Virus record (IMG/VR): IMGVR_UViG_3300040758_000047
Span: 1-64,000 of that record
Length of the DNA stretch: 64,000 bases
Strand: one strand, 5' to 3'
DNA from: a virus
Shown in pieces: positions 2,220-60,743 of the stretch. Position 1 is the stretch's first letter, and each line of letters opens with the position of its first letter. The notes below the pieces were generated by a model. That model had not been told where the DNA came from. It ran no database searches and saw nothing but the letters and a program-made list of their open reading frames with translations. A program made the position numbers and the translations under genes.

Positions 2220-2599
2220 GCGACGAGTCCCACGTTGTACCGATTAACCTAGCGTCCAAATCAGCCCACAATAAAGAAACCCGGCCTCTGTATAACGAAG
2301 AAGGTGAGCAGATTGGGATGGCCACCTTGGAATGCGAGATAACCTACTCGCGGGTCATCCAAGCGGGGGAAGACACCTACCTCATGGTGGACGAAAAGAA
2401 CTGGGATGTAGCGCGCGGACGGTTTCCCTGGAAGATGACCGCGCGCACCCTCCCTGTGACGGCTCGCAAGTTAGGAATGGCTATGGTGGCCAAAACGGAT
2501 TACGCTGGCTATGTTCTGATTGAGATCGGCGAGCATATGTTCGTGGTTCCTGAACGGCACACGGAGGCGCTATGCAGGATGTACCCACAGAACCCATAA
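2216..2599 (+). CDS. hypothetical protein
   Basis: GGGAGG RBS; GTGA overlap with the upstream stop. Confidence 0.6.
   Translation: MSDESHVVPINLASKSAHNKETRPLYNEEGEQIGMATLECEITYSRVIQAGEDTYLMVDEKNWDVARGRFPWKMTARTLPVTARKLGMAMVAKTDYAGYVLIEIGEHMFVVPERHTEALCRMYPQNP
2227..2240. promoter_or_regulatory. parS-like palindromic site
   Basis: GTCCCACGTTGTAC. Confidence 0.7.
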
Positions 2600-2967
2600 C
2601 AATTAGATTCTTGGGGTTCGCATCGAAAAAGAACTTCTGGCGTCCCGGCAAAAACGGTAGAGGAATCTACCTCGACAAGAAGACTCGCGCCTTAGTCGAG
2701 CGTATGGAGCTTCAGGTGCCCGCTGAAGTTAGAGACTTGCGATTGGAAAGCCCTGACATGATCTGGACCTTCCGGTATACCAACGGTCACGCTGACCGCG
2801 ATGGGATCATGGTCACAGTACTCGATATCCTACAGAAATATGGTGTGCTGGTCAACGATTCGATCACAAGGTGTAATGGTCTGTGGACGGTTCACCCGGC
2901 TGAACGTGGGGAGTACGATGAAGTTGAGGTGACACTGATACCGAGAGAGCCCCGTGTCCCACATTGA
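2572..2967 (+). CDS. RusA-like Holliday junction resolvase
   Basis: SKKN motif and DRDG..VLDILQKYGVLVNDS acidic motifs typical of the RusA family. Confidence 0.65.
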   Translation: MQDVPTEPITIRFLGFASKKNFWRPGKNGRGIYLDKKTRALVERMELQVPAEVRDLRLESPDMIWTFRYTNGHADRDGIMVTVLDILQKYGVLVNDSITRCNGLWTVHPAERGEYDEVEVTLIPREPRVPH

Positions 2968-3253
2968 GCACATCCGAGACAAGTTAGCTAATCTGGAGGT
3001 CCGCCAACTACTGCGGGACGCCTCACGCCGACAGGCTAGCATCTTAAGGAAAGCCTACCGTTTCCGCAAGCTGGGAAGATTCGACCACCTCTTACATTTA
3101 CAATGTGGGATGACCTTGTGCTACGACAGGGCAGGAAAGTTGTGTTGGGCAAGCGCACCCAGAATCACTCAGGATAACAATCAGCAGTGCGAGATGGAGT
3201 TCATCTCCGACTCCGACCCCGCTTTGCCTTCCGTTTCTTCACCACAGAGTTAG
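2954..3253 (+). CDS. hypothetical protein
   Basis: ORF overlapping the upstream gene. Confidence 0.45.
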   Translation: MSHIEHIRDKLANLEVRQLLRDASRRQASILRKAYRFRKLGRFDHLLHLQCGMTLCYDRAGKLCWASAPRITQDNNQQCEMEFISDSDPALPSVSSPQS

Positions 3254-3386
3254 CCGCTCTTATGGCGGCACCCTCTGAGTACCCGCGTTCCAACATGCTG
3301 TTCGAAACGTGGCTCCATTGTCTCTGGGCCTTTCGGCTTTTCGCTTTTTTCGTGTGGCGCTTGGCATCACTTGGTTTCCAGGGCAT
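3201..3386 (-). CDS. small basic phage protein
   Basis: AGGAGG RBS; K/R-rich 61 aa; last gene of the late operon. Confidence 0.75.
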   Translation of the reverse strand: MPWKPSDAKRHTKKAKSRKAQRQWSHVSNSMLERGYSEGAAIRAANSVVKKRKAKRGRSRR

Positions 3387-3395
3387 AATATCCTC

Positions 3396-5321
3396 CTAAT
3401 TGTGACCTGTTAGGGGCGGATTTTGGATTACGGTGCCGTTCAAAAACTTGGTCCACTTCCGAATTCCGGCCTTATTGCGCCCGAGTGGTTCTACTTCAAT
3501 GCTCTTGATCTTGCCGCCGTATCGAGAAAGCATTTTAGAGACATTCGCTGGGGCTTGGTCTGAATCGTATTCGAGGGCACTGATCGTTTTCCCGCTGGCG
3601 TCTTTGGCTGTCAGTCGTATGCCCTCAAGGTTTACTTCGGTGGCCTTCTCGAATATAGATCGCACGGCTTGATGTAGTTCCTGTTGTTCTGACGTCTCGG
3701 GAGCGCTGGAGCCCTTCTGCGCCCCCTCAGTTTTCGGAGGGGCGGTCGCCGATTCGGGCGGAAGATTGGCTAGCGCTCCCGAATCCTTTTCACGTCCTTT
3801 TGGAGTCCCACGTTGTACTTCAGGTGGTGGGGAAGGCTTTTCTCCTGCCTTTAATTTCGCTTCCAGTTCCGCGATCCGCTTATTGTTAGCCGCAATCTTG
3901 TCCTCGGGGGATTCCTTTGCGACAACGGGTTCAGGAGGAAGGGAGGGCTTCCCTGCGGGTTCCCCCGTTTTTGGCATTTCCACCACATTCTGCTTGTGTG
4001 GAGGATTTTCCAGCACACCCATTTTCTCGGGACTCGGGACTGGCAAGACAGGCTCTTTCCCTTGGCTTGCCATGGCCTCCCTACGCACTCCAGAAACCTG
4101 AGAACGGCCTATGGATTCCGGGGTGGGCTCAGGTGGCGGGGCCGCAGTCGAAGCAGTGGCGGGCTTCTGTGGGCCAGCAGCGGGGGTTTCCTGGGAAACC
4201 GGGGTAGGAATAGACTTCGGGGATGGCTTGGCGGGTGGTTTGGTCTCCTGTACTCGCTCAGGTGGCTTCGCTAAAGGCTTTCCCGCTGCTGGGGTCTTGG
4301 CTTGTCGAGCTTCAAACTTCTTCAGGGCGTCATCAAGAAGTCGTTGCTTTTCCGCTTCGGTGGCGTTGGCGACTTTGTCCCAGGCGGTTTGGGCGGGTGA
4401 CAGCTTGGGAGATTCAGTCTTGGCCTCTGGAGGGGGTGGGGCGGGCGGACCAACAGGACCTTCTGGCCCCTTCGGAGTTTCCACGGTGGGCTTCGCTTCG
4501 ACTGGAGGCTTACCGGCCTTACCGCCTTTGGTCGCTGCTGCAATTAGGGCTATGTCACCTAAAGCGCGAGCGGCCTGCTTTCCGACTTCACGGTAATTAC
4601 CAGATTGGAGCGCATCTGCCGCCTCTGGAAAAGACTGAATAAAGTCATAACTCTGTGCGCCGATAAAGCCAGTTTTTATCATTTTACCTAGAACGTTTAT
4701 GGCTTTGGCCGCTCGCGGAAAATTGGCGAGTTTGGATTCCGGTAGCAGTATCGACCCAATAAGAAAGGCTGCGTTGAGCGGAGATGTCATACTGAGTCCG
4801 GTGTCGGCCAGTCCTTCACCTAACCCCGCCGAGAACTCCTGAACATTCTTAGGCGCTCCAGCTACTTTAGGGATTTCCTGGGCAGCCCAAGCGGCACCTT
4901 TCTCAACAGCAGGCTTGACGACTCCCTGTACTACCTCAGACGGCAGAAACGCCAGCCCTGGGAGTACGGAACCGCCGGTCAACTGGTTCTTGATTGCCGT
5001 GCCTACCTCGGACAAGGAGGGAAAATGTGCTTTGCCGGATGGTTCAGGCGGACTCTCAGGCTTACCGTTGGCGGATTTCGGGGCACCGTCTGACGGCTCA
5101 AGGCCCTTGATACTGTACAGGTTGTTAAACCCAGGAACGTGCCCTTGCATGTACTGGGCCCATTGTTGTGGGGTTATTTTACCCGGAGTCTCCTTAAGCA
5201 TCTGCTTGGTGGCCTGCCGGTAGACGTCGTACTTCGGGTCACCCGATGTCACAGCCTGTTTCATCTTAGTCGCGAACTCTTCTGCGGTGACTTCGCGAGG
5301 TTTCTGGGGCTGAGGGGTCAT
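3396..5321 (-). CDS. putative internal virion/ejection protein, Pro/Glu/Lys-rich
   Basis: 641 aa; position after nozzle and GNAT genes; low-complexity C-terminal half. Confidence 0.55.
   Translation of the reverse strand: MTPQPQKPREVTAEEFATKMKQAVTSGDPKYDVYRQATKQMLKETPGKITPQQWAQYMQGHVPGFNNLYSIKGLEPSDGAPKSANGKPESPPEPSGKAHFPSLSEVGTAIKNQLTGGSVLPGLAFLPSEVVQGVVKPAVEKGAAWAAQEIPKVAGAPKNVQEFSAGLGEGLADTGLSMTSPLNAAFLIGSILLPESKLANFPRAAKAINVLGKMIKTGFIGAQSYDFIQSFPEAADALQSGNYREVGKQAARALGDIALIAAATKGGKAGKPPVEAKPTVETPKGPEGPVGPPAPPPPEAKTESPKLSPAQTAWDKVANATEAEKQRLLDDALKKFEARQAKTPAAGKPLAKPPERVQETKPPAKPSPKSIPTPVSQETPAAGPQKPATASTAAPPPEPTPESIGRSQVSGVRREAMASQGKEPVLPVPSPEKMGVLENPPHKQNVVEMPKTGEPAGKPSLPPEPVVAKESPEDKIAANNKRIAELEAKLKAGEKPSPPPEVQRGTPKGREKDSGALANLPPESATAPPKTEGAQKGSSAPETSEQQELHQAVRSIFEKATEVNLEGIRLTAKDASGKTISALEYDSDQAPANVSKMLSRYGGKIKSIEVEPLGRNKAGIRKWTKFLNGTVIQNPPLTGHN
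3805..3818. promoter_or_regulatory. parS-like palindromic site
   Basis: GTCCCACGTTGTAC. Confidence 0.7.
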
Positions 5322-11189: not shown

Positions 11190-11762
11190 TTAACCCCCAG
11201 TCCCACGTTGTACTCGCCAGTCCTCCCTAGTCAGGTAGGACATGACGGCGTCGGCAGGAACTCCATGGTACGATGCGAACTTTGGCAGAGGGGGTAAAAA
11301 AGTGAAGCCGAGCCGTCTCCCAAAAATCAGGGTGGCCCGGTTGTCAGCGAGGCTCAAGCCGTACAGGATATCAAGGTTTTCCGTTTCAAACGAATACTCA
11401 AGGGTCTTCTCGATCAACCGCAAAGGAATCCGGTGGTGCATGTATTCCCTGAATATTACGAACCCGCAATCGGCTTTCCGTCCTCCAGAACCTCCCCGGA
11501 TGCTCCAGAGCCACGCGAGACCGGCCAAGCGTGCTTCATGGGCATCGTTGCGGATAAAACAGCCGAGATAGCGGTTGTCCTTGGCTTCAAGCCACCCGAT
11601 GAACTCTTTGAGAGTGGGGACGTGGCTGAAGAAGACTGTCTCCAGAAGGTTATCGGCCTCCATCTGAATATAGGCTCTGGCCATCAAACTCTGAGAAATG
11701 TCGCTGGCTACGAACACCTCTGGGTGCGCTTTTATCTGGAGTACGCTGGTAGCGGTAGCCAT
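11190..11762 (-). CDS. GNAT-family acetyltransferase-like protein
   Basis: CGFVIFREY..DNRATLIFGRRLGF GNAT motif; usual podovirus position; ATG at 11762 preferred. Confidence 0.75.
   Translation of the reverse strand: MATATSVLQIKAHPEVFVASDISQSLMARAYIQMEADNLLETVFFSHVPTLKEFIGWLEAKDNRYLGCFIRNDAHEARLAGLAWLWSIRGGSGGRKADCGFVIFREYMHHRIPLRLIEKTLEYSFETENLDILYGLSLADNRATLIFGRRLGFTFLPPLPKFASYHGVPADAVMSYLTREDWRVQRGTGG
11200..11213. promoter_or_regulatory. parS-like palindromic site
   Basis: GTCCCACGTTGTAC. Confidence 0.7.
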
Positions 11763-12904: not shown

Positions 12905-15900
12905 CAGCCGCCGCCTTCCCCGAGAGTCATCATTTCGCTGAAGGTGATTTGTTTGTAAACCGCGTGCCGGTCAGATCCCAAGTATAGAAGTTCCAAGCCG
13001 CTCCCTTCCGCAAAAAACATAAACGGCGATGAGGAGTCCAACTGGACCCGGTAAGTCTTAGACTTGTTCAACCCGCTCCCCCATACGCTAGGGAGAAGGA
13101 ATCTCTCCTCTGAACGGGTAGCGTGGGCAGGAAGTGTTACTTCAAACGTGCCAGTGTCAGAAATAAGCGTCAGCGTCACCGGCGCCGGACACAGGTACTT
13201 CCACCATCCCTGCTTGACCAATTTCCAAAACTTCCAGCCACATGTCTGCTCGTAGCTATCCCAGTGGGTGACGGCGGCTGGCTCTTTGACGTGATCGAGA
13301 CTCCAGTCCCAGAGTTTGAAGGCCCCATTCGGGATAATCACTAATCGCCACTGCGTCCCACTCAGATTCGATGGGCAGGCTACCACAACCCTACGGTTGT
13401 CATAGGTGGTGTTCACTGGGAAGGTGGCGACTGTCCCAGCTTCGCCAGTTTGTAGATTGACTCCGGCTAAAGTTCCTTCTGTGTCTACGGTTAGAATTAG
13501 ATTTCTCGCCAACTTTAAGAACGGCCACCCGAACGAGTTCCACGGCGTACACAGTATGCTGTCAGGAGGATCTGGGGAGTTCTCCTGGTTGAATGGTGCC
13601 CAACGGGAAACTCCCCAATTATAGACTTGGGATAGTCCTCCACTACCAGCCGTAACAAGCAGTCTCCACATCTTTCCGAAGACGTCCACCGGAAGCGCGT
13701 AATTGACCTTTCGACTTGTAACTACACCAGTGTGGGAGAAGGAGAAGACCGAGCCATTCTCGTTTTCAAGAACGATATTCGCGGCGATCCCTCCCGTGTT
13801 CGCATCCAACCAAACCCAAGTAGGGTTCTTGTCATCCGGGGTTTCAGCGTCACGCCACGGTAACCACAATATCTGGGTCGGAGGGGCTTGAGATGTTCCC
13901 TCTGTAAACGGCGTCCATCTTGCTAGTCCCCAATCGAACACCTGTGCTTTACCCTTCGTTCCCGGCGTTAGAATAAGCCGCCACATCTTACCGAACGTGT
14001 CTGCTGGTATCGGGTAAGAGTTCTTGCGGTTGTCCACCGTTCCCGTATGCGTAAATGGGAACACATCTCCAGTCTCGTTTACCAACTGACATGCACAAGC
14101 GATGTTAGCCGTGTCCATATCAACCCAGACCCAAGTCGGGTTTTCCTCGACTGGTCCCTGTGCTGGCTTCCATGGGGTTGAGTAGATGATGTCCGCAGGA
14201 TAGTCCGTCTTGTCGAAGGTGTACTTCCACTGCTTGAAACCGATTGGCAGAGGGGTTGTGATTGGATACAGACGGATCAATTTGGCAATCGTATCCACAG
14301 CGATGGGGAAGGTACACTTGCTTCTGTCGCCAGTCAGCGTAAACTGTCCCACGTTGGACACCAGCGTTCCACCACCGATTCCATTGATGATGTCGAGTTG
14401 CAGGACTACGTTAGTGCCCGTAGCGGCAAGCGACAGATCCCATTCGACCGTCACTGTCCTCAAATACTTGTCGTAACCATGCCCGAGATCATCCCAATCT
14501 CCAGAGTGAACCACGTCGGCCTTGTCCGCCTTCTGGAAAGAGAACCGATGGCTGAACAATTGAAACATCCCGCCGTCAGTGGCAATCGAGGTTTGAGTGG
14601 TGTCCACAAATAACCGCCACTTTTTACCGATCAGTCCAGGGGGTATGGTGATGTTTCTGCGCCGGTCTTTTTCTGTAGTGGTTACAGTGAAGGTCCAGGG
14701 ATTTCCACCAATCATCACATTCGCTCCGTCTGCCTGGACGTTAACGGTGACCGGCCAGTTATTCGTATTCACTTCCAGGTCAATCTGGTTGGCGTATTTG
14801 TCGTACTCGTATCCGTCGTCCTCCCAAGGGGTATAGGACACAATGTCGGGCGGGTAATCCTCCTTTTCAAAGTCCACATTCAAGATGCGGAAGAAGAACG
14901 TGGAGGCCGTATTGAGAGTGAACCCACCCTCAGGACCCCCAAGAGCAATGGGCCGCAGGCGAACTTCCTTGACAATGGTTCCATCGGCTATCGGGAACGT
15001 CTTCAATGTCCGACCAGCTCCGCTGATGTCGGCAGTGAGGAGGGTAAACGACTGGACAGCTTCTCCGTACAGGAAAGAATCGCGTCCCGTGAGGACGTCC
15101 ATGACGATGGTTTGGTCAATTCCCCGAATAACGTCAAACTCCACCGTCATTTGGTAAAGCCGCTTGTCGTACTTATAGCCAAGGTTCATCCAATCAGTAG
15201 CCCCGCTGGTCGTCTGGATGCCAACGTCGTAATACTTCATGACCAGCGAATAGAAGGTCATTCTGGCCGGATAAGCTTGACCATAGATTCGATACGAAAA
15301 GGCCCTCGCTTCCTGACCATAAACCGTGGGTGGAGTTCCAGCAACCATGCCGGGGAGAAGCGAAATTAACTTTCTTCCAACAGTGCTGCCCGATTGGTAG
15401 TCGCTGAGGGGAAGAGTCACCGTGATCGTATTCACTGCCACATCGGAATAGTTCAACAGGATGTCGATACTTAGAGTCGCGGTTGCAGTATTCCCGGTGA
15501 CATCGAGATCAAGCAAGGCTTCCTGTAGTACCTTCTGTGATTCAGGAGAGCCGAAATCAAACCACGGCAGAGAGACCGAGAATGCGATGGGGCCTCCCTG
15601 CGTCGTTGGATCGGTCGTAAATGAGTCGCTAGTGAAGTTATAGTACGCGACGGTGGGCGGAAATCCAGGAACAACAGTGACTGGCACGATGGTTTCCTGG
15701 TCGTGCATCACGAACGATACGTTATCCAGCCCGGTCACTGACTCGATCATCATGCCAGTATCGGGTTCCGTGTAAGCGACAAAATCCAGATTGAATCCAA
15801 CACTTACAAACTCCTTCCACCTATCCCCAAACCTTGGCTCACAGATCAAGCGCAAATAAGACCCCCCAACCGCTGGGTACAGGAGATGGACCTCTCCTCG

Positions 15901-22900: not shown

Positions 22901-23954
22901 TGCCCAATTCGTCCGGGCCGCTGGGCTGGCTGGTGATGTAGCCCGTTCCCGAGTGAACGGTGTCGTAAACGATGATCGGCTGATTAGCCGAAAACAACGT
23001 CGTGAAGGAGGTCCCTGTTCCGGTGACGGTAGCACCGCTTGTTGCCACCGTCCCGAGTCCGGCGAGCGCCGCTTGTCCGCCGACAATTGCCGAGGTGAAA
23101 CTCGTAGGAGAGCTGGAGGTTTTGCCGCCCTGTCCGGGGCACCCCGAGGTGGTGTCGTTTCCGCTGGCGTCCAAACATAGCGGGGTGCCTGCCGACCCCG
23201 ACACTGTTCCCGCCATTTGAACTTTATTCGTATACGTTCCCTGCGAGTTACCATTGAGCAAATTGGCAAGTCCGCTCGCCGCAGTGGTACCACCCGTGCC
23301 GCCCTGGCCTACGAGTAACGGAAAACTAAGGACGAAGCACCCCGAGGTGGTGTCGTTTCCGCTGGCGTCCAAACATAGCGGGGTGCCTGCCGACCCCGAC
23401 ACTGTTCCCGCCATTTGAACTTTATTCGTATACGTTCCCTGCGAGTTACCGCTCAAGAGATTTGCGAGTCCTGTGGCGGCGGTAGTCCCCCCGGTTCCTC
23501 CCTGAGCAAGGGTTAACGGAAAACTAAATGCCCCTACTCCGGTTGAAAAGAAGGGGGTTCGCAGGGCCGTGTAAGTCACCACGGCATTGCCAGTGATTGC
23601 AATCTGGATGTACTTGTGGTTCCCGTTTCCGTAGGCGATAGGCGGGCTGCTCGATTGAGTTATCTGTGAGGCCGTCCCATAACTCGTCCATGGACCCGAA
23701 CAGGATACATCGGAGTAATTGAGGGCAACGGTCCAAGTGCCAGACCCGGAGACAACGCCAACAGAGTGGTAATAGTTGGAGCGTGAAATTGCCGACACAT
23801 TGGACACCACACCAGGGCATCCAGGGATTTCTCCCGCCCAGCTAGAACTGATTCCGTAGATGACCGTTTGCAGGACAGCCTGTTGCACGGACTGTGCGAA
23901 CAGAAGTCCCACGTGGGACGCCGCGAGGAGGGATATCAGGGCAAGTTTGCGCAT
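19914..23954 (-). CDS. tailspike/fibre-like protein with a pectin-lyase-like beta-helix and signal peptide
   Basis: AGGAG RBS; MRKLALISLLAA..LFAQ; DNSAAVAAA..IYMPDGDY beta-helix cap; GGTGGTTAA fibre repeats. Confidence 0.72.
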   Translation of the reverse strand: MRKLALISLLAASHVGLLFAQSVQQAVLQTVIYGISSSWAGEIPGCPGVVSNVSAISRSNYYHSVGVVSGSGTWTVALNYSDVSCSGPWTSYGTASQITQSSSPPIAYGNGNHKYIQIAITGNAVVTYTALRTPFFSTGVGAFSFPLTLAQGGTGGTTAATGLANLLSGNSQGTYTNKVQMAGTVSGSAGTPLCLDASGNDTTSGCFVLSFPLLVGQGGTGGTTAASGLANLLNGNSQGTYTNKVQMAGTVSGSAGTPLCLDASGNDTTSGCPGQGGKTSSSPTSFTSAIVGGQAALAGLGTVATSGATVTGTGTSFTTLFSANQPIIVYDTVHSGTGYITSQPSGPDELGIQSIGSIVTFFGGATTTGLSKGDVICSTIYGGTLNNAPGQCWTIYQVVDTYHVTTQHTMYPQVGAGQYACNIVVAANVGYVTCNSPHGLASGANVTIAGTGNSSLNGTYSITNEPAFFTNDPTSSYNFEITTSGVANGFYASDSITLSGVTPTPHLSCSITSNVATCTSLQWPGFTVGDSVYYVNGSTGTCADMNGAHTITGVGTGDYPKTFTFATSGVSNGTCADTAVLIGAGWTYQHHPQRSVVQSVTNNTTLTVSPSFSPDFPAGATYQYAPDNSAAVAAACSLGTSIYMPDGDYHIYTPASAPFHIATCTGFSQEWAMSGGARFVLDNQQNADGFYFEGGTRAKFTNWTVDGLWVWTTRAVVTSEAPLAFQIQDAYYPTVTNFRSTGGTGNVLISQFNDHPLIQGVQCLNVAGCLLSNGDVDLVASDLQVTNSSDESISIHNAPGGIDQERGATVSNFTVKNGENIDTTQLSNVAWSNGLLEGMVDDPVRQAPYNPTNSSISYSNIIIRGGGMAGPQCRWLGCTANFYLGSNPFVQMTNVQILSTNPQSMMGGIVDWAAIGNTSTLQLSNVTISGGPSYGVNAYVNRLEVSNSYFENLDDIGLSETSSGLVSVNGLTLRDVARKWGAGAGSFYGGPNYALALGVTTEFHVRNLTILDDQSTPTGYKIFEYGIGTIGEFDNLTSTITNGALAWNMNSEGNPGKIFVHSYQPQTYSQISQLTANGQIGNGSKMYCSNCTIGACSTSGTGSDVTWVAGAAVCGGGSGGGGGGGSVNVNGSAVTSPNFNGTTPAAASGYQNATFQVSGSNVSAEIPVSTTTDLREFKCLSQLGVAGCNFSFAAGTNQVQFNPHAGLTNNIFGQVDFLGAATGTQAAVVFQTQLSNSWTSVTFDLEWLTTATSGAATWYLQLACVPATGASLDPAWDSARSYTSTAQTTASYSNAIGPQTLTLPSACVAGTPGPMLFGRIYRNGSDTLGSSATASLLSARLTIVHP
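23139..23450. repeat. 114-bp identical direct repeat (23139-23252 and 23337-23450), 198-nt period
   Basis: Direct comparison; encodes GNSQGTYTNKVQMAGTVSGSAGTPLCLDASGNDTTSGC twice. Confidence 0.92.
23906..23919. promoter_or_regulatory. parS-like palindromic site (perfect)
   Basis: GTCCCACGTGGGAC. Confidence 0.75.
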
Positions 23955-26454: not shown

Positions 26455-26718
26455 TTATCCTCTTTCCGATGTCCCCAGCGCACGCAAGACGTAAACGGCT
26501 TCGTCGGCCATGTAGTGCTTAGCCATAAATGCTGCCAGTCGATTGGCTATCGTCCCGATGCTTTCCGAAGCGACTCCATTTACATAGGGGATTCTCTTTA
26601 TCCCTCGGCGATTAGGCATAGCCACCAATTGGGACATGGCCCGACTGTCGGTACGGATGTAGCGGTACTTTTCGTTCTCGGCAACCGTTTCCGATTTACA
26701 CTCCGCGCTTCGTCCCAC
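26455..26718 (-). CDS. hypothetical protein
   Basis: AGGAGG RBS; GTG start lies inside a palindromic site. Confidence 0.6.
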   Translation of the reverse strand: MGRSAECKSETVAENEKYRYIRTDSRAMSQLVAMPNRRGIKRIPYVNGVASESIGTIANRLAAFMAKHYMADEAVYVLRALGTSERG

Positions 26719-26725
26719 GTTGAAC
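26712..26725. promoter_or_regulatory. parS-like palindromic site over a start codon
   Basis: GTCCCACGTTGAAC. Confidence 0.7.
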
Positions 26726-28279: not shown

Positions 28280-28293
28280 GCCCAACGTGGGAC
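28280..28293. promoter_or_regulatory. parS-like palindromic site
   Basis: GCCCAACGTGGGAC. Confidence 0.7.
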
Positions 28294-28817: not shown

Positions 28818-29183
28818 TTAGATGCTCCTGCCGATGCCCGGGATAACCCCACTGAACTCCGGCAAGACCTTTCCGTCTCCTTCCATCATTGCCCACAAAT
28901 GCAAACAGTGCGCATGGATGTTGACGTAATTCTCCTCTGGCGGGAAGACCGCGTAAGCATAGAGGTCACTGCCTATAAAAGCGTTCTTGATCTTCACGGT
29001 GTCATCGTGGTTTGGTGTCCAAGACTTGCGAGAATAAGACACATGTAGCCATTGGCGACCATCCTCTTTCTCTTCGCAGTCCACCAGGACCCGTAACCCG
29101 CCATCTTTCTCGCGAACGGCATAGCCGTCTCCCCACTTCTGGATGACCTCCCATCCTTTTGGGCACTCGAATTTCCAGTCCAA
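28818..29183 (-). CDS. conserved phage protein (W.HVS.S...P...YVNIH..CLHLW family)
   Basis: Characteristic motif; TTG start at 29183 overlaps a palindromic site. Confidence 0.65.
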   Translation of the reverse strand: MDWKFECPKGWEVIQKWGDGYAVREKDGGLRVLVDCEEKEDGRQWLHVSYSRKSWTPNHDDTVKIKNAFIGSDLYAYAVFPPEENYVNIHAHCLHLWAMMEGDGKVLPEFSGVIPGIGRSI

Positions 29184-29191
29184 CGTGGGAC
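29178..29191. promoter_or_regulatory. parS-like palindromic site over a start codon
   Basis: GTCCAACGTGGGAC. Confidence 0.7.
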
Positions 29192-29194
29192 CCC

Positions 29195-31029: not shown

Positions 31030-33233
31030 CTCAGCCATCCTCCGGGAGGCTTGGCGTGATCCCACTTCTTCTTGAAGATCTCCATGTTCCGGTCGTACCT
31101 TCGACGAAACTCTTCTTGGTCATAATACGAGCGGAAGGTTTGGCCTTGAAGGTGTTGGGCTCTAACGGGTTTAACGGCGATTGTAAACCCGGCGATTCTG
31201 GCTCGCGCCAGAAAATCGTCATCGAGAAATCCGTATCCTCCGTTGAACTCCTCGTCATAAACGTATCCGCCGACAGCCTCGTAGACGTTTCTCGGGATGC
31301 ACCACAGCGAGGTTTCCAGCTTCATCTGGCCAGTCAATACGAAGGTCTCAGGTGCCCACGAAGTAACCGTTTCTGGGACTGCCATTGTCTCCAGCCAATC
31401 GGGATCTTCGATCATAACGTCATTGCACACGATGAAAATAAACTGCCCTTGCGCTTTTTCGAAGGCTAAATTGATGGCGGTGGCCTCTCCTTTCTGATCG
31501 GCAACGATGATCTCGATCCCTTCGGGGGAGTTCTGTTTGATTAACCCAAGGCTTCGGGCCGACATCTCCCTGACTTTACCTTCTGGATCGTAATCCACAA
31601 ACACTACAGAGTACTTCGGTCTGTCGTCCACTGCTACCACCCCTTCCCCACATACTGGGTCAAATCCATACTCGATTGGGTATCGGACAATTGCCTTCAA
31701 ATGCGCTTCCCTCAGCCACGAGTCGATCACTTCAGGAGGACAGTGATGGTGCTCACCATATCCCGATGGTGCTATGGAGTCGTCTGGATTCGGATGCCGC
31801 GTGTCATTCGGAACAGTGAAGACAATCCTGCCACCGGGTTTCAGCAGTTCCTTGAACTTCAAGAGTTGCTTGGGAACCGCGTCCGTGGGAAAGTGCTCCA
31901 GAATCTCTGTCGCGGCCACAACATCGAACGAATGCCGCTGAAACGGTCGGGGGAGGTCGCGGGCGTCTGAAATGATGTCCGCTGCGTTGGGTTTACAAAG
32001 GTGCTTGTCGAACTCGTACTTGTCAAGATTAACGGCACCGATCTTCCGCATTTCTCCGCCATCGTCGCAACACCCTACATTCAGAATCTTCCCCTGACCC
32101 TTAGAGTGCTTGAGCGCAAAGATGAACTGTGCGCCGGTGTTTTTGTGATCCTCGACACCATACATCCATGTCTCGATGAAGTCGATGTACCGCTCCCAGT
32201 TGAAGGTAGATCTTGCCCACGGCATCATGTCGGCGCGGATCTGCTCTTGCAGTCCCACGTTGGACGCCAGCTTGTAAATCTCCCCAACATACCGGGCCTG
32301 CGTTAACGGATCTTCTGGATCACCAAAGATCCAGATTCCATGAAGGCAATAGTCTCCCGCTGCCCATGTTGGGGAAATGATCGGGATGGCACCCAGCGCC
32401 ATTTCTTCGATACCAGAAATAAACCCCGTTTCCGTAAACAGCGTCGGGTGAGCCGACATCCCACAGGACAATTTCTCCTGGTATAGCCGCTTCTGCCCGA
32501 TCCTGCCCAGATGAGTGACCCCCGGTTGTTTCATCTCCCGCATGGCCTCATCGTAAATCAGCTTCCACTGATTGGTCGGCGGGTTCGAGGCGATGATCTT
32601 CTCCATGTTGTCGAACCCGTAGGCAATGACCAATTCAAGGTCATGCACCCACTGACGCGCTTTACGGAAGATCTTCAACAGGGGGAGGAGTCCGCGATCA
32701 GGAGAACTGGCAAAGATGATCTTCCTTGGATTTCTCGTGGGCACGCCTTCGGCCTCGATCTCCCGTATCAAGTCGTTTCGGATGCCATTGAACCCCTGGC
32801 ACACCTTCTTGGCGTATTTGGGGTACTCTTTCATCGTGAAACTGGCATGAGTCGGGCAGAGAGCGATAAAGCGGTCTAATTTCTCCCACCGTTCCTCGGT
32901 AAGGTGGGGGTAGAACACATCTTGGCTAACCAATGACAAGACCTGTCCGGGATGCTCAAGGGGGAAATTATCGAGGACCTCTGGGCACCGAGACACGAAC
33001 CACCATCCAGGCCGGGTGTAATCGGCCTCAGAAAGGGGTAGCCAGCGCGTCCCTAGCCACTCAGGGGGCGTATCCTGCCGCAGGGGGGCGTAGACCACCA
33101 CCTCGTGCCCGCGCCTCGCCAAGCGCCTAGAAACCTCCACAACGGCGGTCTCCGAACCGCCTATTCCGGGGTCCTCAGGGTTGCGCATATCCCAAGGCTC
33201 GAAAGTGACGGGGCTGATGATCGTTACCTGCAT
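31026..33233 (-). CDS. multidomain glycosyltransferase: GT-B + SAM methyltransferase + GT2
   Basis: GIGGSET, SSPDRGL, ETGFISGIE; ILNVGC and EILEH..LKPGG; C-terminal DEEF..GF.DDDF. Confidence 0.85.
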   Translation of the reverse strand: MQVTIISPVTFEPWDMRNPEDPGIGGSETAVVEVSRRLARRGHEVVVYAPLRQDTPPEWLGTRWLPLSEADYTRPGWWFVSRCPEVLDNFPLEHPGQVLSLVSQDVFYPHLTEERWEKLDRFIALCPTHASFTMKEYPKYAKKVCQGFNGIRNDLIREIEAEGVPTRNPRKIIFASSPDRGLLPLLKIFRKARQWVHDLELVIAYGFDNMEKIIASNPPTNQWKLIYDEAMREMKQPGVTHLGRIGQKRLYQEKLSCGMSAHPTLFTETGFISGIEEMALGAIPIISPTWAAGDYCLHGIWIFGDPEDPLTQARYVGEIYKLASNVGLQEQIRADMMPWARSTFNWERYIDFIETWMYGVEDHKNTGAQFIFALKHSKGQGKILNVGCCDDGGEMRKIGAVNLDKYEFDKHLCKPNAADIISDARDLPRPFQRHSFDVVAATEILEHFPTDAVPKQLLKFKELLKPGGRIVFTVPNDTRHPNPDDSIAPSGYGEHHHCPPEVIDSWLREAHLKAIVRYPIEYGFDPVCGEGVVAVDDRPKYSVVFVDYDPEGKVREMSARSLGLIKQNSPEGIEIIVADQKGEATAINLAFEKAQGQFIFIVCNDVMIEDPDWLETMAVPETVTSWAPETFVLTGQMKLETSLWCIPRNVYEAVGGYVYDEEFNGGYGFLDDDFLARARIAGFTIAVKPVRAQHLQGQTFRSYYDQEEFRRRYDRNMEIFKKKWDHAKPPGGWLR
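32252..32265. promoter_or_regulatory. parS-like palindromic site
   Basis: GTCCCACGTTGGAC. Confidence 0.7.
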
Positions 33234-41305: not shown

Positions 41306-41319
41306 GTCCAACGTTGGAC
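41306..41319. promoter_or_regulatory. parS-like palindromic site (perfect variant)
   Basis: GTCCAACGTTGGAC, intergenic. Confidence 0.7.
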
Positions 41320-47496: not shown

Positions 47497-47510
47497 GTCC
47501 CACGTGGGAC
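47497..47510. promoter_or_regulatory. parS-like palindromic site (perfect)
   Basis: (A)GTCCCACGTGGGAC(T). Confidence 0.75.
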
Positions 47511-49740: not shown

Positions 49741-49754
49741 GTCCCACGTTGGGC
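49741..49754. promoter_or_regulatory. parS-like palindromic site
   Basis: GTCCCACGTTGGGC, upstream of portal. Confidence 0.7.
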
Positions 49755-51323: not shown

Positions 51324-51782
51324 TCACGACGCCTCTTTGGCTTCGGCAACCTGTTGTTTCTTTTCGGCTTCCTTGAGGTCACGTAATGTGGCGGTAGCTT
51401 TCTGCAATTTCCTCCCATCTTCGGAGGCTTCACAATTGCTTGGGAGTTCGGATGGGAGGGCCACACCATTGCTGCGGCACCACTCTTTTTGCTGTTGGAA
51501 GGTTTCTATGTAGCGGGGCTTAGGTTTGCCGTCCGGGGTATTCCTGTCCCAGACCCAGTGGTGAAGGTCCTGGCGGTCGCCATCGTCTAGGGATCTGTCC
51601 ACGTATTTCCGTCCCATATCTCCCATGAAGGGACTGGCGAACGAACTGGGTATCTTCTCCGTTCTTTCCCCGCACTCTTCGCAGGGCTCAGTCGGATCGT
51701 CCCAGTGTTTATAGAAGTGCTCCACAATCAGACCACGGTTGCCGCAGGTCTTGGAGACGCACACTGACTCAAAAACTGGCAC
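51324..51782 (-). CDS. FmdB-like zinc-ribbon protein
   Basis: MP.FE..C...C..E......C..CG; commonly found near phage portal genes. Confidence 0.65.
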   Translation of the reverse strand: MPVFESVCVSKTCGNRGLIVEHFYKHWDDPTEPCEECGERTEKIPSSFASPFMGDMGRKYVDRSLDDGDRQDLHHWVWDRNTPDGKPKPRYIETFQQQKEWCRSNGVALPSELPSNCEASEDGRKLQKATATLRDLKEAEKKQQVAEAKEAS

Positions 51783-55143: not shown

Positions 55144-55647
55144 CTATTCCTCGACCGGCTTGGTCTTCTCGTACTCCACGGGGGTGGCAACCAGATCCAC
55201 CACTCTGCGAGCTGGTCCTAACTGGCGGGTTTCCTGTTCGTCAGCCAACATGCGGAAGATAGCGTCCGGTGTAGCCAGCCCCTTGGAACCTGAGGCGCTG
55301 ATATTGGCTGTCTGATTATTGTTGTTCTGTTGGACGTTGACAACCGTGCCCGCCTTGCCACCTTCTACTAAGCCGTACATCTGGGCCACAAGTCTCATCG
55401 CCGCCACATCTCCCGCTTCTACGCTAATCTCCAAGTTATGGAATAACTTAAATAGGTGCTTGATGGCGTGAAAGGCCTGGATTTTCCCTTGAATGGAACG
55501 GCTGGAGAGGTTCTTGGCGGTGACCTTGATGCCAGCGAATTTCTCGGGAATAACCAGTGGGGGAGCGGGGTTCAACGTGGGACTGCTGGCAACCTGCTTG
55601 ATCTGGGTTGCGATGGGGGTCACTTTCGGCTTCTTTTTGTCCGCCAC
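55144..55647 (-). CDS. putative terminase small subunit
   Basis: Directly upstream of terL; GDVAAMRL helix and VNVQQNN tail; promoter TTGACT-16-TATATT at 55654-55681. Confidence 0.55.
   Translation of the reverse strand: MADKKKPKVTPIATQIKQVASSPTLNPAPPLVIPEKFAGIKVTAKNLSSRSIQGKIQAFHAIKHLFKLFHNLEISVEAGDVAAMRLVAQMYGLVEGGKAGTVVNVQQNNNNQTANISASGSKGLATPDAIFRMLADEQETRQLGPARRVVDLVATPVEYEKTKPVEE
55570..55583. promoter_or_regulatory. parS-like palindromic site
   Basis: GTTCAACGTGGGAC. Confidence 0.7.
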
Positions 55648-56487: not shown

Positions 56488-56859
56488 TCACTCTGGCAAC
56501 GCCTGGACCATTTCGCGCACGTCGCGCATACTAACGCCAGCAGCCAAGAGGTCGCGCGCACTGACGCCAGCAGCCAAGAGGGCGCGCGTACTGACGCCAG
56601 CGGCCAAGAGGTAGCGCGCACTAAAGCCAGCGACCCAGAGGGCGCGCGCACTGACGCCAGCGACCCAGAGGTCGCGCGTACTGACGCCAGCGGCCAAGAG
56701 GTCGCGCGCACTGACGCCAGCAGCCAAGAGGTCGCGCGCGATAACGCCAGCAGCCACGAGGTCGCGCGTACTAACGCCAGCAGCCCACTTTTCTTTGATG
56801 GCTGATATATCAGCTTCCAGTCGATCCAGTTCCTTCAATAACTCAGATTTCGTTTGCAT
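56488..56859 (-). CDS. decapeptide-repeat protein (RDLLAAGVSA)n
   Basis: AGGAG RBS; about 9 repeats. Confidence 0.65.
   Translation of the reverse strand: MQTKSELLKELDRLEADISAIKEKWAAGVSTRDLVAAGVIARDLLAAGVSARDLLAAGVSTRDLWVAGVSARALWVAGFSARYLLAAGVSTRALLAAGVSARDLLAAGVSMRDVREMVQALPE
56521..56786. repeat. 30-bp tandem repeat, about 8.9 units
   Basis: GTCGCGCGCACTGACGCCAGCAGCCAAGAG consensus, head to tail with no spacers. Confidence 0.95.
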
Positions 56860-56925: not shown

Positions 56926-57894
56926 CTAACCTCCTGGCCTGGGGGGAACCAGCCGTGAATTGGCCACACTCTGATCCCTCAAGGATGACTGCAAAATCGA
57001 ATCCTCATGCTTAGAAGCTCTAGGGTCGGATATGGACCGAAAACCTTTTTGCATCTGCCCTTCTTGCTTTGTAAGCCGGTCGCCCATCGGAAGGTTGTCA
57101 GTGTCGAAATTTCCAATCTCCCTTAATGGAGGGGAATCACCGATCTCCGCCGGAGACATGTACTTCGGGCGGGGCTTGTACATTGCCTTCAATTGCTCCA
57201 GGATTTCATCGAGCGCCGCGCTAATGTCCTGCTTTTCGTCGTAGACGCTGAAGGTCTTGCGAGCTACCAATAGGCCAAGAGATGTAGGCTGTCCTTCAAC
57301 AGCTCCCCCGCCAGCACTATCCGACACGGCATCGTGCTTGTAGGTCAAATGAACCAGTCCCATCCCGGCCTGGTTGAGGACATTCTTGCGCGCCCGTAAA
57401 GTCAACTTTCCTTCCAGCCCCCTCGGCTCGAATTCGATGTAGTCCGGTGAATTATCGTTAATAAGAGCAATCAGATCCGACACGTCCCACTTAGGGTTTT
57501 CCGTTAGGTTTGATGGCCTTTTTCCTGTGACTGCCCGCCTGCGGACGGTTCCCGCCGTGAATACCTTACGCTTTATATCGGCGGGCTTATGCTCGTCGAA
57601 TCCCGGATCTCCCGGCATTAAAATTACGCTCTTGGCCTCTCCGGGGTCCGTAGCAACGTCTTTATGGAGCACCACGGCTCCCAGTGGCGGGGGAGGGTGA
57701 ACGTCCAACGTGGGACTCGGCACGCCCGGTGGAACCGTGGCAATACCGGATTCCTCCGTGTTCATGTCATAGAGCATTTCCACCGTGTCCACCACGTCCT
57801 CGGTGAGTAGAATAGAGTCCTGGGTCTTCTTCAGCCCACGGTCGAGGGTCTTCTGAATGTAGCGGGCGAACTTATCCTTGAGTGCTTGGTCCAT
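56926..57894 (-). CDS. hypothetical protein
   Basis: Long ORF; ATG at 57894 (MDQALK) preferred. Confidence 0.65.
   Translation of the reverse strand: MDQALKDKFARYIQKTLDRGLKKTQDSILLTEDVVDTVEMLYDMNTEESGIATVPPGVPSPTLDVHPPPPLGAVVLHKDVATDPGEAKSVILMPGDPGFDEHKPADIKRKVFTAGTVRRRAVTGKRPSNLTENPKWDVSDLIALINDNSPDYIEFEPRGLEGKLTLRARKNVLNQAGMGLVHLTYKHDAVSDSAGGGAVEGQPTSLGLLVARKTFSVYDEKQDISAALDEILEQLKAMYKPRPKYMSPAEIGDSPPLREIGNFDTDNLPMGDRLTKQEGQMQKGFRSISDPRASKHEDSILQSSLRDQSVANSRLVPPRPGG
57703..57716. promoter_or_regulatory. parS-like palindromic site
   Basis: GTCCAACGTGGGAC. Confidence 0.7.
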
Positions 57895-58626: not shown

Positions 58627-59169
58627 TCAGACTTGATCCTTCATTCTTGCGTTTGGCTCGTATACTAAAGTCTTCTTGGCCCGGTCCATGGCTTCTGCCC
58701 AATCTACCCCGTAACGTCGCCGGATTCCTTCCGCCCGTTCGCGGAGTTCCGCCTCCTGATCGGTCATGTCCGTGTAGCCGCTTCCATCTCCACCCAGAAT
58801 CTTAGTCAACCAGTTGGTCTGGCTCCTGGTGAACTTCTCGAAGGAGAGGGACAGGGAATCCAGGGCGGCGAGTTGCTTGGATGCTTGATCTGTCCGCTCG
58901 ACACGCCCGCCAACAAGACCATCACGAACTAAAGCGAGATTGTCGTTGATCGTTGAAAGATGCGTTCGGGTTATGCCCGCCTGCTCCTGGATGGCTGCGT
59001 TCACTTTGCAAATCTGGTCGCGGATCTCGGTGAACTCCAGCGATGGCTGGTACACCGTGGGACTGCGCATGACCCTCACGGTGGAGAGTACCATCTTGTA
59101 GACGGCCACTACCACCGCGATCGCCACGATCCCGTAGCCAATCCACGACATCAAGACTTGCAGCGTCAT
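58627..59169 (-). CDS. membrane-anchored protein
   Basis: N-terminal TM helix WIGYGIVAIAVVVAVY; ATGA overlap. Confidence 0.6.
   Translation of the reverse strand: MTLQVLMSWIGYGIVAIAVVVAVYKMVLSTVRVMRSPTVYQPSLEFTEIRDQICKVNAAIQEQAGITRTHLSTINDNLALVRDGLVGGRVERTDQASKQLAALDSLSLSFEKFTRSQTNWLTKILGGDGSGYTDMTDQEAELRERAEGIRRRYGVDWAEAMDRAKKTLVYEPNARMKDQV
59050..59063. promoter_or_regulatory. parS-like site (one extra mismatch)
   Basis: GTACACCGTGGGAC. Confidence 0.5.
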
Positions 59170-59528
59170 TTCGCAACCTTCTTTTTGTGGCTTTTCCTGA
59201 CCTCGACGAAGTAACCTTGGCTCAATAGAAAGTCCGTGCCCGACTTCACATACTGTTGTACGCGGGCCTTGGAGATATCCAGCGCTTGAGTGTACTTCAT
59301 CCCGATTAAATAAGCCTTGGTTTCCGGCCACTCCGAACCCTGCAAGAACATAATGGCGGCATTGATCGCAACCTTCAATCGAGTCCGTTTACGATGTGAC
59401 CAGTCTTCGGGAGGTTCCGGCGCGCGTTTATAGATACGCGGGTCCGATGCCGTCATACGGCCTTCGCGGATCGCCTTCCTCAGGTCGCGAGGGGTCATTC
59501 CAGGATGTCCTCGGCTCTTTCCAGCCAT
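59166..59528 (-). CDS. putative HTH DNA-binding protein
   Basis: ALDISKARVQQY sigma-4-like HTH; start uncertain. Confidence 0.45.
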   Translation of the reverse strand: MAGKSRGHPGMTPRDLRKAIREGRMTASDPRIYKRAPEPPEDWSHRKRTRLKVAINAAIMFLQGSEWPETKAYLIGMKYTQALDISKARVQQYVKSGTDFLLSQGYFVEVRKSHKKKVAK

Positions 59529-59764
59529 TCGGGAATCGGTTTGCCGTGGTAGATGAACTCCAAGAAACGAACCGCCATTTCATTGCACGACAGTTCGCTT
59601 TGGATGTGGACAACGTCGAACACGCTCTCGATGGAGGCGAACCGCTCGATGGCGATGCCGATCTTGTTTGGTCCTTGGCATCCTACTTCATAGCAGAGCC
59701 CCAAGGTTTTGATGATCTCAAGGGTGAGTTGGAATTTGGTCATTGCTTTGGATGCTCCTTCCAA
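59495..59764 (-). CDS. hypothetical protein
   Basis: ORF in operon. Confidence 0.5.
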   Translation of the reverse strand: MEGASKAMTKFQLTLEIIKTLGLCYEVGCQGPNKIGIAIERFASIESVFDVVHIQSELSCNEMAVRFLEFIYHGKPIPEWLERAEDILE

Positions 59765-59903
59765 TACTTCGCCGTTGCTATAATGGTGTACCCATCTTGG
59801 TCTTCGACATTTTCCCAGCGCCCTGTCGAGATCAAGAACTTCTTCGCCTCATCGTAGGTCATCCCCATTGCTATTTCGAAATCGCTGGGCCTTTGCTCGG
59901 GCT

Positions 59904-60722
59904 TCATCCCAACACCCCTACCTTCCCATCGCCTTCATACTTTAAGATGATCTCGTCTTCACTGATTTCCTTGACCACCACATTTGTTTCCAGTTGTACC
60001 CTGCCCGACTTCCCTACGACTTTAAGAGCGGCAATCATCCCCGGTTTTGCTGACCACTGCCACGCTGCCTTCGGCCCCTCCATCAACTTCACAACTTCGG
60101 CTTCGTCAACCACGTCGTTGGTCAAGTAGTCCTGAATTTGGCGCAAAATCATGGCTTTGGTGGGCCGATCGTCGGGCTCCTCGCGTTCGCGGGCCGTCAC
60201 TCCCCTAGTCGAGGCTTCCCGCTTGGCCTTCCGTTCCGCCACTTTCTTTTTCTTGGCTTGCTTGGTTTCGCCTCTTCGAATCTCGCCGACCAACGATAAG
60301 GAGACGCCAATGTACTTGGCGATCTGGGTGTCTTTCCACTCCCCAATCTTCTCGTCGGTTACCGCCAATTCAACGGCGCGTCTTTTGTCGGCATTGGTCA
60401 GCCGTGCGCCGTGATGGGAGTTTTCCAATAGGGCGTACTTCAGTGCATCGGAGGCGTCCCCATCGTGTATGACGGCGGGGATTTCCAGCTTGTTTTCCTG
60501 CCGGTAGGCTTCGATGCGATGGAAGCCGTCCGCGACACGGTAGGAGTTGTCTCCGTTACGGAAGATATGAATGGGGTCCATATTCCCGTGCTCCTGAATT
60601 AAGGAGCGGTACTGATGGACCAATCTGGCGTCGAGGGTGATGCGAATTTGGACGGAATTAGTTTCGTCAATTTGCTCGATGGGAACCAGCTTAACGGTTT
60701 TCTTGGTGGCAGAGGGTGTCAT
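59904..60722 (-). CDS. ParB/Srx-domain protein with HTH (ParB-like)
   Basis: VPIEQI..QIR..DPI..VADGFHR (GxxR box)..EN..HG..LT.ADKRRAV; HTH DTQIAKYIGVSLSLVGEIRR. Confidence 0.85.
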   Translation of the reverse strand: MTPSATKKTVKLVPIEQIDETNSVQIRITLDARLVHQYRSLIQEHGNMDPIHIFRNGDNSYRVADGFHRIEAYRQENKLEIPAVIHDGDASDALKYALLENSHHGARLTNADKRRAVELAVTDEKIGEWKDTQIAKYIGVSLSLVGEIRRGETKQAKKKKVAERKAKREASTRGVTAREREEPDDRPTKAMILRQIQDYLTNDVVDEAEVVKLMEGPKAAWQWSAKPGMIAALKVVGKSGRVQLETNVVVKEISEDEIILKYEGDGKVGVLG

Positions 60723-60729
60723 TGTCTTT

Positions 60730-60743
60730 GTCCCACGTTGTAC
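60730..60743. promoter_or_regulatory. parS-like site between the promoter and start codon of the ParB-like gene
   Basis: GTCCCACGTTGTAC, 7 nt upstream of ATG 60722. Confidence 0.75.

Follow-up and report, generated by a model that had tools for sequence, protein, structure and literature searches.

We showed that the genome of an uncultured phage carries 27 dispersed copies of one short palindrome and encodes a 272-amino-acid (aa) orphan ParB-family protein, which on balance is likely to be the protein that binds them. The array is probably a phage-encoded operator network of the KorB/Noc type. The DNA analysed, referred to here as the window, is a stretch of 64,000 nucleotides from IMG/VR record IMGVR_UViG_3300040758_000047; it comprises the first 64 kb of the source record (96,503 bp, 55% G+C, with a 127-bp terminal overlap), which we designated G000. 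Recent work has shown that orphan ParB-family proteins such as Noc, KorB, BisD and VirB affect DNA at a distance as cytidine triphosphate (CTP) switches. To our knowledge, all of the characterised examples are cellular, plasmid-borne or borne by integrative and conjugative elements.

The palindrome array of G000

The palindrome has a 14-bp form, aGTCCCACGTGGGACt or GTCCCACGTGGGAC, which lies within the 16-bp consensus aGTCC(C/A)ACGT(G/T)GGACt. With up to two mismatches allowed, GTCCCACGTGGGAC occurs 16 times in the window. The first-pass annotation of this DNA had asked for a count against dinucleotide-shuffled sequence: 100 dinucleotide-preserving shuffles of the window gave 0.34 copies on average and at most 3, none of them reaching 16. 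The motif is present at all 17 of the positions which that annotation had listed, in 16 cases with no more than two mismatches and at 59050 with three. The whole 96.5-kb genome holds 27 sites at the same threshold (the reversed-pattern control gave 0), which are dispersed across its entire length at a density of 1 per 3.6 kb and do not form a centromere-like cluster.

The conserved unit is 16 bp long, with A favoured before and T after the 14-mer (33 of 54 half-sites), and no conservation was found outside it. Half-site counts gave the consensus a-G-T-C-C-(C/A)-A-C, in which positions 4, 6 and 7 are invariant. The bases of pair 5/10 are non-complementary in 17 of the 27 sites and those of pair 3/12 in eight. 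This uncompensated variation argues against a selected hairpin and in favour of two half-sites read by a dimer. Asymmetric copies run along the local gene strand in eight cases and against it in nine, so their orientation is independent of transcription. Taken together, the half-site structure, the non-compensatory variation and the indifference to transcription point to a site for a dimeric DNA-binding protein.

The sites are concentrated at gene boundaries. Two thirds (18/27) are intergenic or lie within 40 nt of a gene end, a category that makes up 18% of the genome (binomial p = 5e-8). Boundary enrichment was observed in four genomes (p = 5e-8, 1.5e-5, 0.003 and 0.002), being three-fold also in three related genomes. 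Six copies (11200, 41306, 51794, 60730, 68784 and 75609) stand directly ahead of a Shine-Dalgarno sequence and start codon, a proximity that is uninformative given a random baseline of 22%. The remaining copies, about one third of the 27, are intragenic and are translated in all three frames, as VQRGT, (S/G)PTL(D/N) or S(H/N)VG. The copy at 23906 yields ASHVG within the Sec-type leader MPMRKLALISLLAASHVGLLFAQS of a 1348-aa open reading frame (ORF). No T-run follows the palindromes in their flanks, and a terminator scan around 60730 gave no match. The G000 palindrome is under selection at the DNA level. The first-pass annotation had proposed such selection from the reading of intragenic copies in different frames and from the SHVG placed in a signal peptide, and had noted the copies at gene junctions; on each of these points the present analysis bears it out.

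The leader of the 1348-aa virion-module protein (window 23811-23960, minus strand) is in itself a textbook Sec-type signal peptide, which is unusual for a structural protein of a tailed phage.

The 272-aa ParB-family protein

The ParB-like identity of the product of 59904-60722, suggested in the first-pass annotation, was confirmed by two profile matches, to Pfam ParB_N (PF02195; E = 2e-8, 34.6 bits against a cut-off of 26.3) and to the PHROG “ParB-like partition protein” (E = 4.6e-18), as well as by structural comparison. An AlphaFold2 (AF2) model, for which 20 family sequences were aligned and whose mean predicted local distance difference test (pLDDT) score is 78, matched ParB, Noc, KorB, PadC and Srx with Z scores of 9-13.7. 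The closest match was RK2 KorB (8qa9_B; Z 13.7, root-mean-square deviation 4.6 over 158 residues, model 7-174 against KorB 51-259), followed by Noc (7nfu_A; Z 10.4, 164 residues, model 3-172) and a ParB-parS complex (6t1f_D; Z 10.0, 151 residues, model 10-171). Since these alignments span both the nucleotide-binding fold and the helix-turn-helix (HTH) domain, the phage protein has both in common with KorB, Noc and ParB. In the model the HTH occupies about residues 131-150 (IAKYIGVSLSLVGEIRRGE), with helices at 131-138 and 142-150. By its predicted structure, then, the protein is a genuine member of the ParB/Srx superfamily, with a ParB/Noc/KorB fold and an HTH. Among the 20 family members there is no or almost no variation at residues Q25, R27, G66, R69 and N101.

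A homodimer was predicted with a median interface score (ipSAE) of 0.74, compared with 0.00 for the best control; no fewer than 62% of contacts were common to the runs, and the partner pLDDT did not fall below 67. In calibration, 20 of 30 solved homodimers attained the mark used, as did 1 of 23 monomers. The predicted interface lies in residues 186-272, a beta-rich C-terminal domain through which the protein is therefore predicted to dimerise, although the result may derive partly from likeness to solved ParB-type dimers.

The first-pass annotation had seen no ParA gene in the window, and the same holds for the whole genome: no ParA-type ATPase (PF13614) was found in the 96.5 kb of G000, while the control search was positive in 14 of 14 genomes. 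The ParA-interaction motif LG(R/K)GL is absent from the N-terminus of the 272-aa protein. Without ParA, this motif or a centromere-like cluster, the protein does not belong to a ParABS partition system. Another class that was considered comprises the phage ParB activators associated with 5mYOX, which adjoin a Tet/JBP-type dioxygenase and are without a DNA-binding domain (PMC13229309). It was rejected, because the dioxygenase (PF12851) is absent from G000 and from four related genomes (G001, G006, G008 and G011) and the 272-aa protein has an HTH domain.

The only known full-length homologues (40-70% identity) come from metagenomes, and cultured phages offer no relative above about 33% identity, which applies to the N-domain. 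One palindrome copy (60730) lies in the divergent intergenic region directly ahead of the gene and is a candidate autoregulatory operator. A scan of 60500-61000 gave no match to a sigma-70 promoter, whose consensus may not suit the host.

Palindromes and protein family in related phages

Each of the six lineages in which the family is encoded within multi-kb flanking DNA has its own dispersed GTCC-type palindrome (Table 1), and smaller metagenome contigs contain GTCCAACGTTGGAC-type sites as well. Comparison of G000 with the syntenic genome G006 revealed several sites which hold their position by orthologous genes while the motif changes in concert. The G006 junction orthologous to that at 23906 has a site too, which lies 15 nt upstream of the start codon, and the G006 orthologue of ORF 58627-59331 has one at a relative position similar to that of 59050. 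In the close relative L007, the site at 57703 keeps 15 of its 16 bases amid flanks that are about 65% identical.

In five lineages, whose proteins share 43-70% identity, a site is found 8-39 nt upstream of the family gene's own start codon, as would be expected of a DNA-binding protein that regulates its own gene. Similar combinations were found further afield. Phage contigs with a more distant ParB_N protein have dispersed palindromes of their own, GAAACGGCCGTTTC in L046/L049 (about 10 copies in the 20 kb of L046) and TGGTAACGTTACCA in L087/L088/L092/L103 (3-4 copies), and such pairs may therefore be widespread in phages.

The first-pass annotation had suggested asking whether related phages with the gene have a palindrome of their own that co-varies with HTH residues. 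The former part of this expectation held in all six lineages and the latter did not, since no simple pattern linking the recognition helix to the motif was found. In G011, RSGK replaces RRGE along with an altered inner half-site.

The palindromes also show preferences for asymmetric forms at particular positions, namely position 5 in G000 (17/27), the centre CA in G006 (20/29, TA being never found) and position 6 in G011 (14/16) and in G001 (12/16), the relative discussed in the next section. The orientation of asymmetric copies flips between genome halves in G001 (11/12) and apparently in G011; no flip was seen in G000. Avoidance of restriction sites was considered as the cause of the asymmetric variants and rejected as a general explanation: it fits G001 (GGATCC 2 against 32 expected) and partly G000 (CACGTG 14 against 24 expected, most of them inside sites), but not G006 or G011.

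A relative with a palindrome array and no family member

Several observations weigh against the ParB-like protein as the binder, and some of these concern G001 (96,253 bp, 96% complete), whose large terminase is 40% identical to that of G000. BLAST, Pfam and six-frame searches with a family hidden Markov model (HMM) detected no family member in G001, nor did six-frame HMM searches in the near-identical sequences L009-L017. The G000 motif has no copy in G001. The genome has about 16 dispersed copies of its own palindrome, GTCTGKATMCAGAC (with a further form, GTCTGGATACAGAC), which is one symmetric transition from the G011 motif GTCCGRATYCGGAC. One of these sites is homologous in position to that at window 57703, within an orthologous gene, a coincidence for which we estimated a chance of about 5%. 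The first-pass annotation had proposed that the ParB-like protein loads at the palindromes, and had named an equally dense motif in relatives lacking the gene as evidence that would refute this. The array of G001, with a motif of its own, counts against the proposal. Moreover, no site stands ahead of the family gene in G006, G011 or L176, and L178 combines a very different helix (STGFIANVRAG) with GTCCAACGTTGGAC sites, which adds to the lack of simple covariation mentioned above. The co-occurrence of family and palindrome is confounded by common descent. Finally, the 14-mer recurs at low copy number between genes in a few bacterial metagenome-assembled genomes (MAGs) from which the phage ParB-like family is absent, so that other proteins are presumably able to use the sequence.

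These facts might be explained if the sites were bound by some other phage-encoded dimeric protein, either common to the clade or replaced from lineage to lineage, with the ParB-like protein being only a regulated gene or having another role. The persistence of a GTC-N8-GAC palindrome array in the G001 lineage speaks for such a binder, as do the position shared by G000 and G001 orthologues and the absence of simple covariation. A conserved G001 site also abuts the ATG of an 82-aa Cys-rich ORF (13937-14185), in the slot that the ParB-like gene occupies elsewhere; this ORF could be a replacement binder, though that is a lead and no more. Against another phage-encoded binder, G001 and its relatives constitute a single lineage, as L009-L017 are 91-100% identical to G001 in the compared region, and a site at the ParB-like gene's own start is kept in five lineages. 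Pfam and PHROG scans of about 60 G000 ORFs revealed one other DNA-binding candidate, a lambda-O-like initiator, and Pfam, PHROG, PDB-sequence and Atlas searches of these ORFs yielded no further one; for the core proteins of 122 and 263 aa, no DNA-binding family could be detected. The initiator was rejected as the main binder. Only its C-terminal domain is common to G001, G006 and G011. The DNA-binding N-terminus shows no conservation between G000 and G006, two genomes with nearly coincident motifs, which makes the initiator a poor candidate. On this evidence another phage-encoded binder appears unlikely.

Palindrome copies flank the replication genes in both G000 and G001. In the region upstream of its terminase genes, at 12208-12897 and 14694-15503 (L021), G001 has genes for a small serine recombinase (Resolvase, E = 3e-39) and for a protein resembling sigma-70 (region 4, E = 3e-7), neither of which has a homologue in G000, G006 or G011.

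Bacterial occurrences, host factors and nucleic-acid structures

An exact scan for the 16-mer in one genome of each of 185,579 prokaryote species returned 42 stretches. Several are ordinary hairpin terminators, and others belong to a repeat of Myxococcota MAGs whose flanks are conserved. The genes around these bacterial loci are ordinary chromosomal ones, and none nearby belongs to the phage family. The richest genome, the Vulcanimicrobiota MAG G016 (6.9 Mb), has 28 copies at no more than one mismatch, mostly intergenic and often paired. These may represent an uncharacterised regulon or repeat. The copies, of the form gGTCCCACGTGGGACc (loci L122, L156 and L160-L163), are often grouped, either as pairs with a spacing of 36-44 bp or as clusters that hold three to four. 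Several Myxococcota MAGs have 5-8 copies of the 14-mer; a count of five in G015, on which none of the conclusions rests, comes from a genome flagged as unpublished. In Kofleriaceae and other Myxococcota MAGs the same core lies inside a longer conserved repeat.

These occurrences raise the possibility that the palindrome is recognised by a protein of the host, for instance a global regulator or a ParB/Noc-type protein, which the phage exploits, and that differences between motifs reflect differences between hosts. The repeated intergenic element in MAGs without the phage family agrees with this, and so does the fact that the natural parS half-site GTTCCAC is one transition from the phage half-site. 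The density in the phage is, however, about 70-fold that of G016 (1 per 3.6 kb versus 1 per 246 kb). G016 also has canonical parS-like sites, and the 14-mer is therefore not its parS. The phage has 55% G+C compared with 64-75% at the MAG loci, and the stepwise change of the motif among closely syntenic phages fits phage-encoded specificity better than a conserved host factor. A host protein as the binder is thus decidedly improbable. Still less probable, to the point of being barely credible, is that the palindromes act as nucleic-acid structures (cruciforms, RNA hairpins, terminators or processing sites) or are remnants of elements resembling repetitive extragenic palindromes (REP) or miniature inverted-repeat transposable elements (MITE). 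Several copies do lie 5-25 nt upstream of start codons, the variable positions in G006, G011 and G001 are central and loop-like with the outer 5 bp nearly invariant, some bacterial occurrences resemble A-tract/T-tract terminator hairpins, and both G000 and G001 have TnpB genes. The stem pairs of G000 nonetheless vary without compensation, the sites are not followed by T-tracts, conservation ends at 16 bp with no extended repeat flanks, and one third of the copies are read as protein in all three frames. As for mobile-element genes, only TnpB was detected; TnpA/RAYT did not turn up in about 60 of the at least 120 ORFs, which were scanned without a search aimed at them.

A cyanobacterial host signature (HIP1) was rejected, there being no enrichment of GCGATCGC. 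G000 and G001 both strongly avoid certain 6-bp palindromes (in G000, TCCGGA 0 against 23 expected and GGATCC 5 against 28; in G001, GGATCC 2 against 32, CACGTG 3 against 18 and AACGTT 4 against 17), which suggests restriction pressure from their hosts.

A model for the phage system

In the model that we favour, the 27 palindromes would be operators or loading sites for a phage-encoded, sequence-specific homodimeric protein, the two HTH domains of the dimer reading the two half-sites. The ParB-like protein would regulate its own gene through the site at 60730 and would control many phage transcription units, as KorB does from dispersed OB sites on RK2. Intragenic sites would provide extra nucleation points, from which, more speculatively, a nucleotide-bound clamp might spread.

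The first-pass annotation, in which the ParB-like protein loads at these sites to coat, silence, condense or segregate the phage genome, is supported in part. An extended form of the model, in which the protein, as a sliding clamp gated by nucleotide, loads at some 27 sites spaced roughly 3.6 kb apart and coats the viral chromosome, is doubtful. Box I (QxR; Q25/R27) is nearly invariant in the family, and the phosphate-binding motif GxxR of box II (G66, R69) is invariant in the 20 members, aligning with GERRWRA of Myxococcus xanthus ParB. The family departs from the CTP-binding and hydrolysis motifs at two points: box II keeps one Arg only (DGFHR in place of GERRxRA), and in box III (ENSHH, compared with ENxxR) the N is conserved across the family and the E is not. 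CTPase clamp behaviour is therefore putative. The ParB fold can bind CTP, ATP or GTP, with a preference that is unpredictable from sequence (survey in PMC12704722).

Comparison with known systems

The KorB/OB system (PMC11790492) and Noc with its Noc-binding sites (NBS) are the closest mechanistic analogues. KorB of the IncP plasmid RK2 acts at 12 dispersed OB operators on a 60-kb plasmid (PMC11790492; PMC13768133). The phage protein resembles KorB, its closest structural match, in the N-terminal nucleotide-binding fold, the central HTH and the C-terminal dimerisation domain. Like the phage palindromes, the OB operators are short and scattered over the replicon, some at promoters and some distant or intragenic, and KorB is autoregulated. 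On the other hand, KorB has as partners IncC (a ParA homologue) and the clamp-locking KorA, whereas the phage is without ParA and no KorA-like partner was identified in it. The two also differ in box II, in the number of sites (27 in 96.5 kb versus 12 in 60 kb) and in that the replicon is viral and shows nothing that points to plasmid maintenance; for the phage protein, binding and dependence on CTP are putative.

Noc of Bacillus is an orphan ParB paralogue with about 70 chromosomal NBS and no ParA role. Its likeness to the phage system lies in a dispersed 14-16-bp palindrome a few symmetric changes from parS and in the alignable N-domain and HTH. Noc is cellular rather than viral, its sites are far less dense, and it tethers DNA to the membrane by an N-terminal amphipathic helix, of which none is evident, by eye only, in the phage sequence (MTPSATKKTVKL...).

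A parallel may also be drawn with the Cluster O mycobacteriophages (Corndog), which have more than 30 copies of a 17-bp dyad repeat, TGTTCGGNNNCCGAACA, of no known function (PMC4351075). About 40% of these are intergenic, 30% near 5' ends and 30% intragenic, in orientations unrelated to transcription (PMC4351075). The authors predicted a dimeric binder, and these phages, which are non-temperate siphophages, encode a ParB-like domain protein, gp90 (PMC4351075). They thus share with G000 the presence of a dispersed short dyad repeat and of a protein with a ParB-like domain in the same phage, but differ in repeat sequence, in the 7-3-7 spacing and in host, and a link between gp90 and the repeat was not proposed (PMC4351075). 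A tblastn search with the 272-aa protein gave no mycobacteriophage match. The Cluster O repeat is the closest published parallel.

The stoperators of Cluster A mycobacteriophages and the conserved inverted repeats of the Streptomyces phage phiC31 are also spread genome-wide, in tens of copies of one repressor site, including copies inside operons. Stoperators are asymmetric and oriented with transcription, and their binders are immunity repressors of temperate phages that do not have the ParB fold. The G000 sites differ in their evenly divided orientation. Neither an integrase nor an immunity repressor turned up among the G000 ORFs scanned, no search having been aimed at either. The ParABS systems (P1 ParB, and N15 SopB with dispersed sopC) resemble the phage system in the ParB fold and in a palindromic site, which in the phage has the core CACGTG and is close to parS. 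The phage system differs in having neither ParA nor the LG(R/K)GL motif, and its sites are not clustered as in a centromere.

Features of the window and of related genomes

Table 1. Palindrome copies in the window, genes discussed in the text, and palindromes of related lineages. Positions refer to the window unless a genome is named; the strand of an ORF is given in brackets.
Feature	Position	Strand	Motif	Context
272-aa orphan ParB-family protein	59904..60722	-		ParB_N fold, HTH, basic linker, C-terminal domain
Copy	2227..2240		GTCCCACGTTGTAC	11 nt inside 5' end of ORF 2216-2599 (+)
Copy	3805..3818		GTCCCACGTTGTAC	Deep within ORF 3396-5321 (-), frame 0 (VQRGT)
Copy	11200..11213		GTCCCACGTTGTAC	Junction of ORFs 11190-11816 / 10566-11186 (-), 13 nt before downstream start
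Copy	14346..14359		GTCCCACGTTGGAC	Within 1682-aa ORF, frame 2 (SNVG)
Perfect copy	23906..23919			In signal-peptide codons of 1348-aa ORF
Copy	26712..26725		GTCCCACGTTGAAC	Just downstream of ORF 26764-27942 (-)
Copy	28280..28293		GCCCAACGTGGGAC	Gene junction, ~50 nt upstream of ORF 27946-28230 (-)
Copy	29178..29191		GTCCAACGTGGGAC	Within ORF 28818-29543 (-), frame 1 (GPTLD)
Copy	32252..32265		GTCCCACGTTGGAC	Within 735-aa ORF, frame 2 (SNVG)
Intergenic copy	41306..41319		GTCCAACGTTGGAC	17 nt upstream of start of ORF 40932-41288 (-)
Perfect intergenic copy	47497..47510			Between convergent ORFs 47249-47488 (+) and portal gene
Intergenic copy	49741..49754		GTCCCACGTTGGGC	~220 nt upstream of portal gene 47659-49527 (-)
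Perfect copy	51794..51807			Gene junction, directly before AGGAG and GTG start of ORF 51324-51782 (-)
Copy	55570..55583		GTTCAACGTGGGAC	64 nt inside ORF 55144-55647 (-), which is directly upstream of large terminase gene
Copy	57703..57716		GTCCAACGTGGGAC	Within 352-aa ORF
Weak copy, 3 mismatches	59050..59063		GTACACCGTGGGAC	Within ORF 58627-59331 (-)
Copy	60730..60743		GTCCCACGTTGTAC	~8 nt upstream of ParB-like ATG, divergent intergenic region 60723-60852
Lambda-O-like initiator	G000 92471-93706 (L028 8471-9706)			PHROG “replication initiation O-like” E = 2e-19; upstream of DnaB 94031-95410
Palindrome of G006			GTCCAACRTTGGAC, also represented as GTCCAACATTGGAC	29 copies; 94.6 kb, complete, syntenic; capsid 80%, portal 58% identical
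Palindrome of G007/G012			GTCCAACGTGGGAC	11 copies in the 51 kb of G007
Palindrome of G008			GTMCAAYRTTGKAC	About 13-14 copies
Palindrome of G010			GTCCAACATGTTGGAC (16 bp)	2 copies in 11 kb
Palindrome of G011			GTCCGRATYCGGAC	18 copies in 83 kb
G000-G006 positional pairs	23906/60418, 75609/22514, 81204/29541
Site upstream of own family gene	G000			8 nt
Site upstream of own family gene	L179 (70%)			14 nt
Site upstream of own family gene	L172 (61%)			16 nt
Site upstream of own family gene	L030/L032/L174 (47%)			15 nt
Site upstream of own family gene	L173 (43%)			~39 nt

Adjoining the ParB-like locus is a solo TnpB gene (window 61511-62617, minus strand; OrfB_IS605 E = 6e-20, Cas12f1-like TNB E = 3e-19), whose product is 39% identical to the TnpB of G001 (86065-87210). 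Antisense to ORF 47-1669 there is also an ORF with weaker likeness to TnpB. Two intra-ORF arrays of about 9-10 tandem 30-bp units, mutually inverted, were found at window 56534-56800 and at G000 69506-69800 (L027 5506-5800); judging by the translated repeat, they look like paralogous genes for pentapeptide-repeat proteins. Among GenBank phages no match was found to the virion protein of 1682 aa.

Conclusions

The analysis has brought to light a clade of uncultured phages of about 95 kb in which every lineage bears its own palindrome in 16-30 copies and most have a gene for a KorB-like protein that begins directly behind one of the sites. Should the doubtful coating clamp prove real, it would constitute the first parS-type system to span a viral genome, and could explain the Cluster O dyad repeats. 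Coating would then mark the chromosome as “self”, shielding it from nucleases or defence systems, silencing it, or condensing and organising it for replication and packaging, and palindrome and protein would co-diversify between lineages as an orthogonality or incompatibility code. If binding as such is confirmed, these phages would provide a naturally diverged set of paired proteins and sites in which to follow the evolution of ParB-family specificity. They would also exemplify genome-wide loading sites in a virus and might account for the dyad repeats described in Cluster O in 2015.

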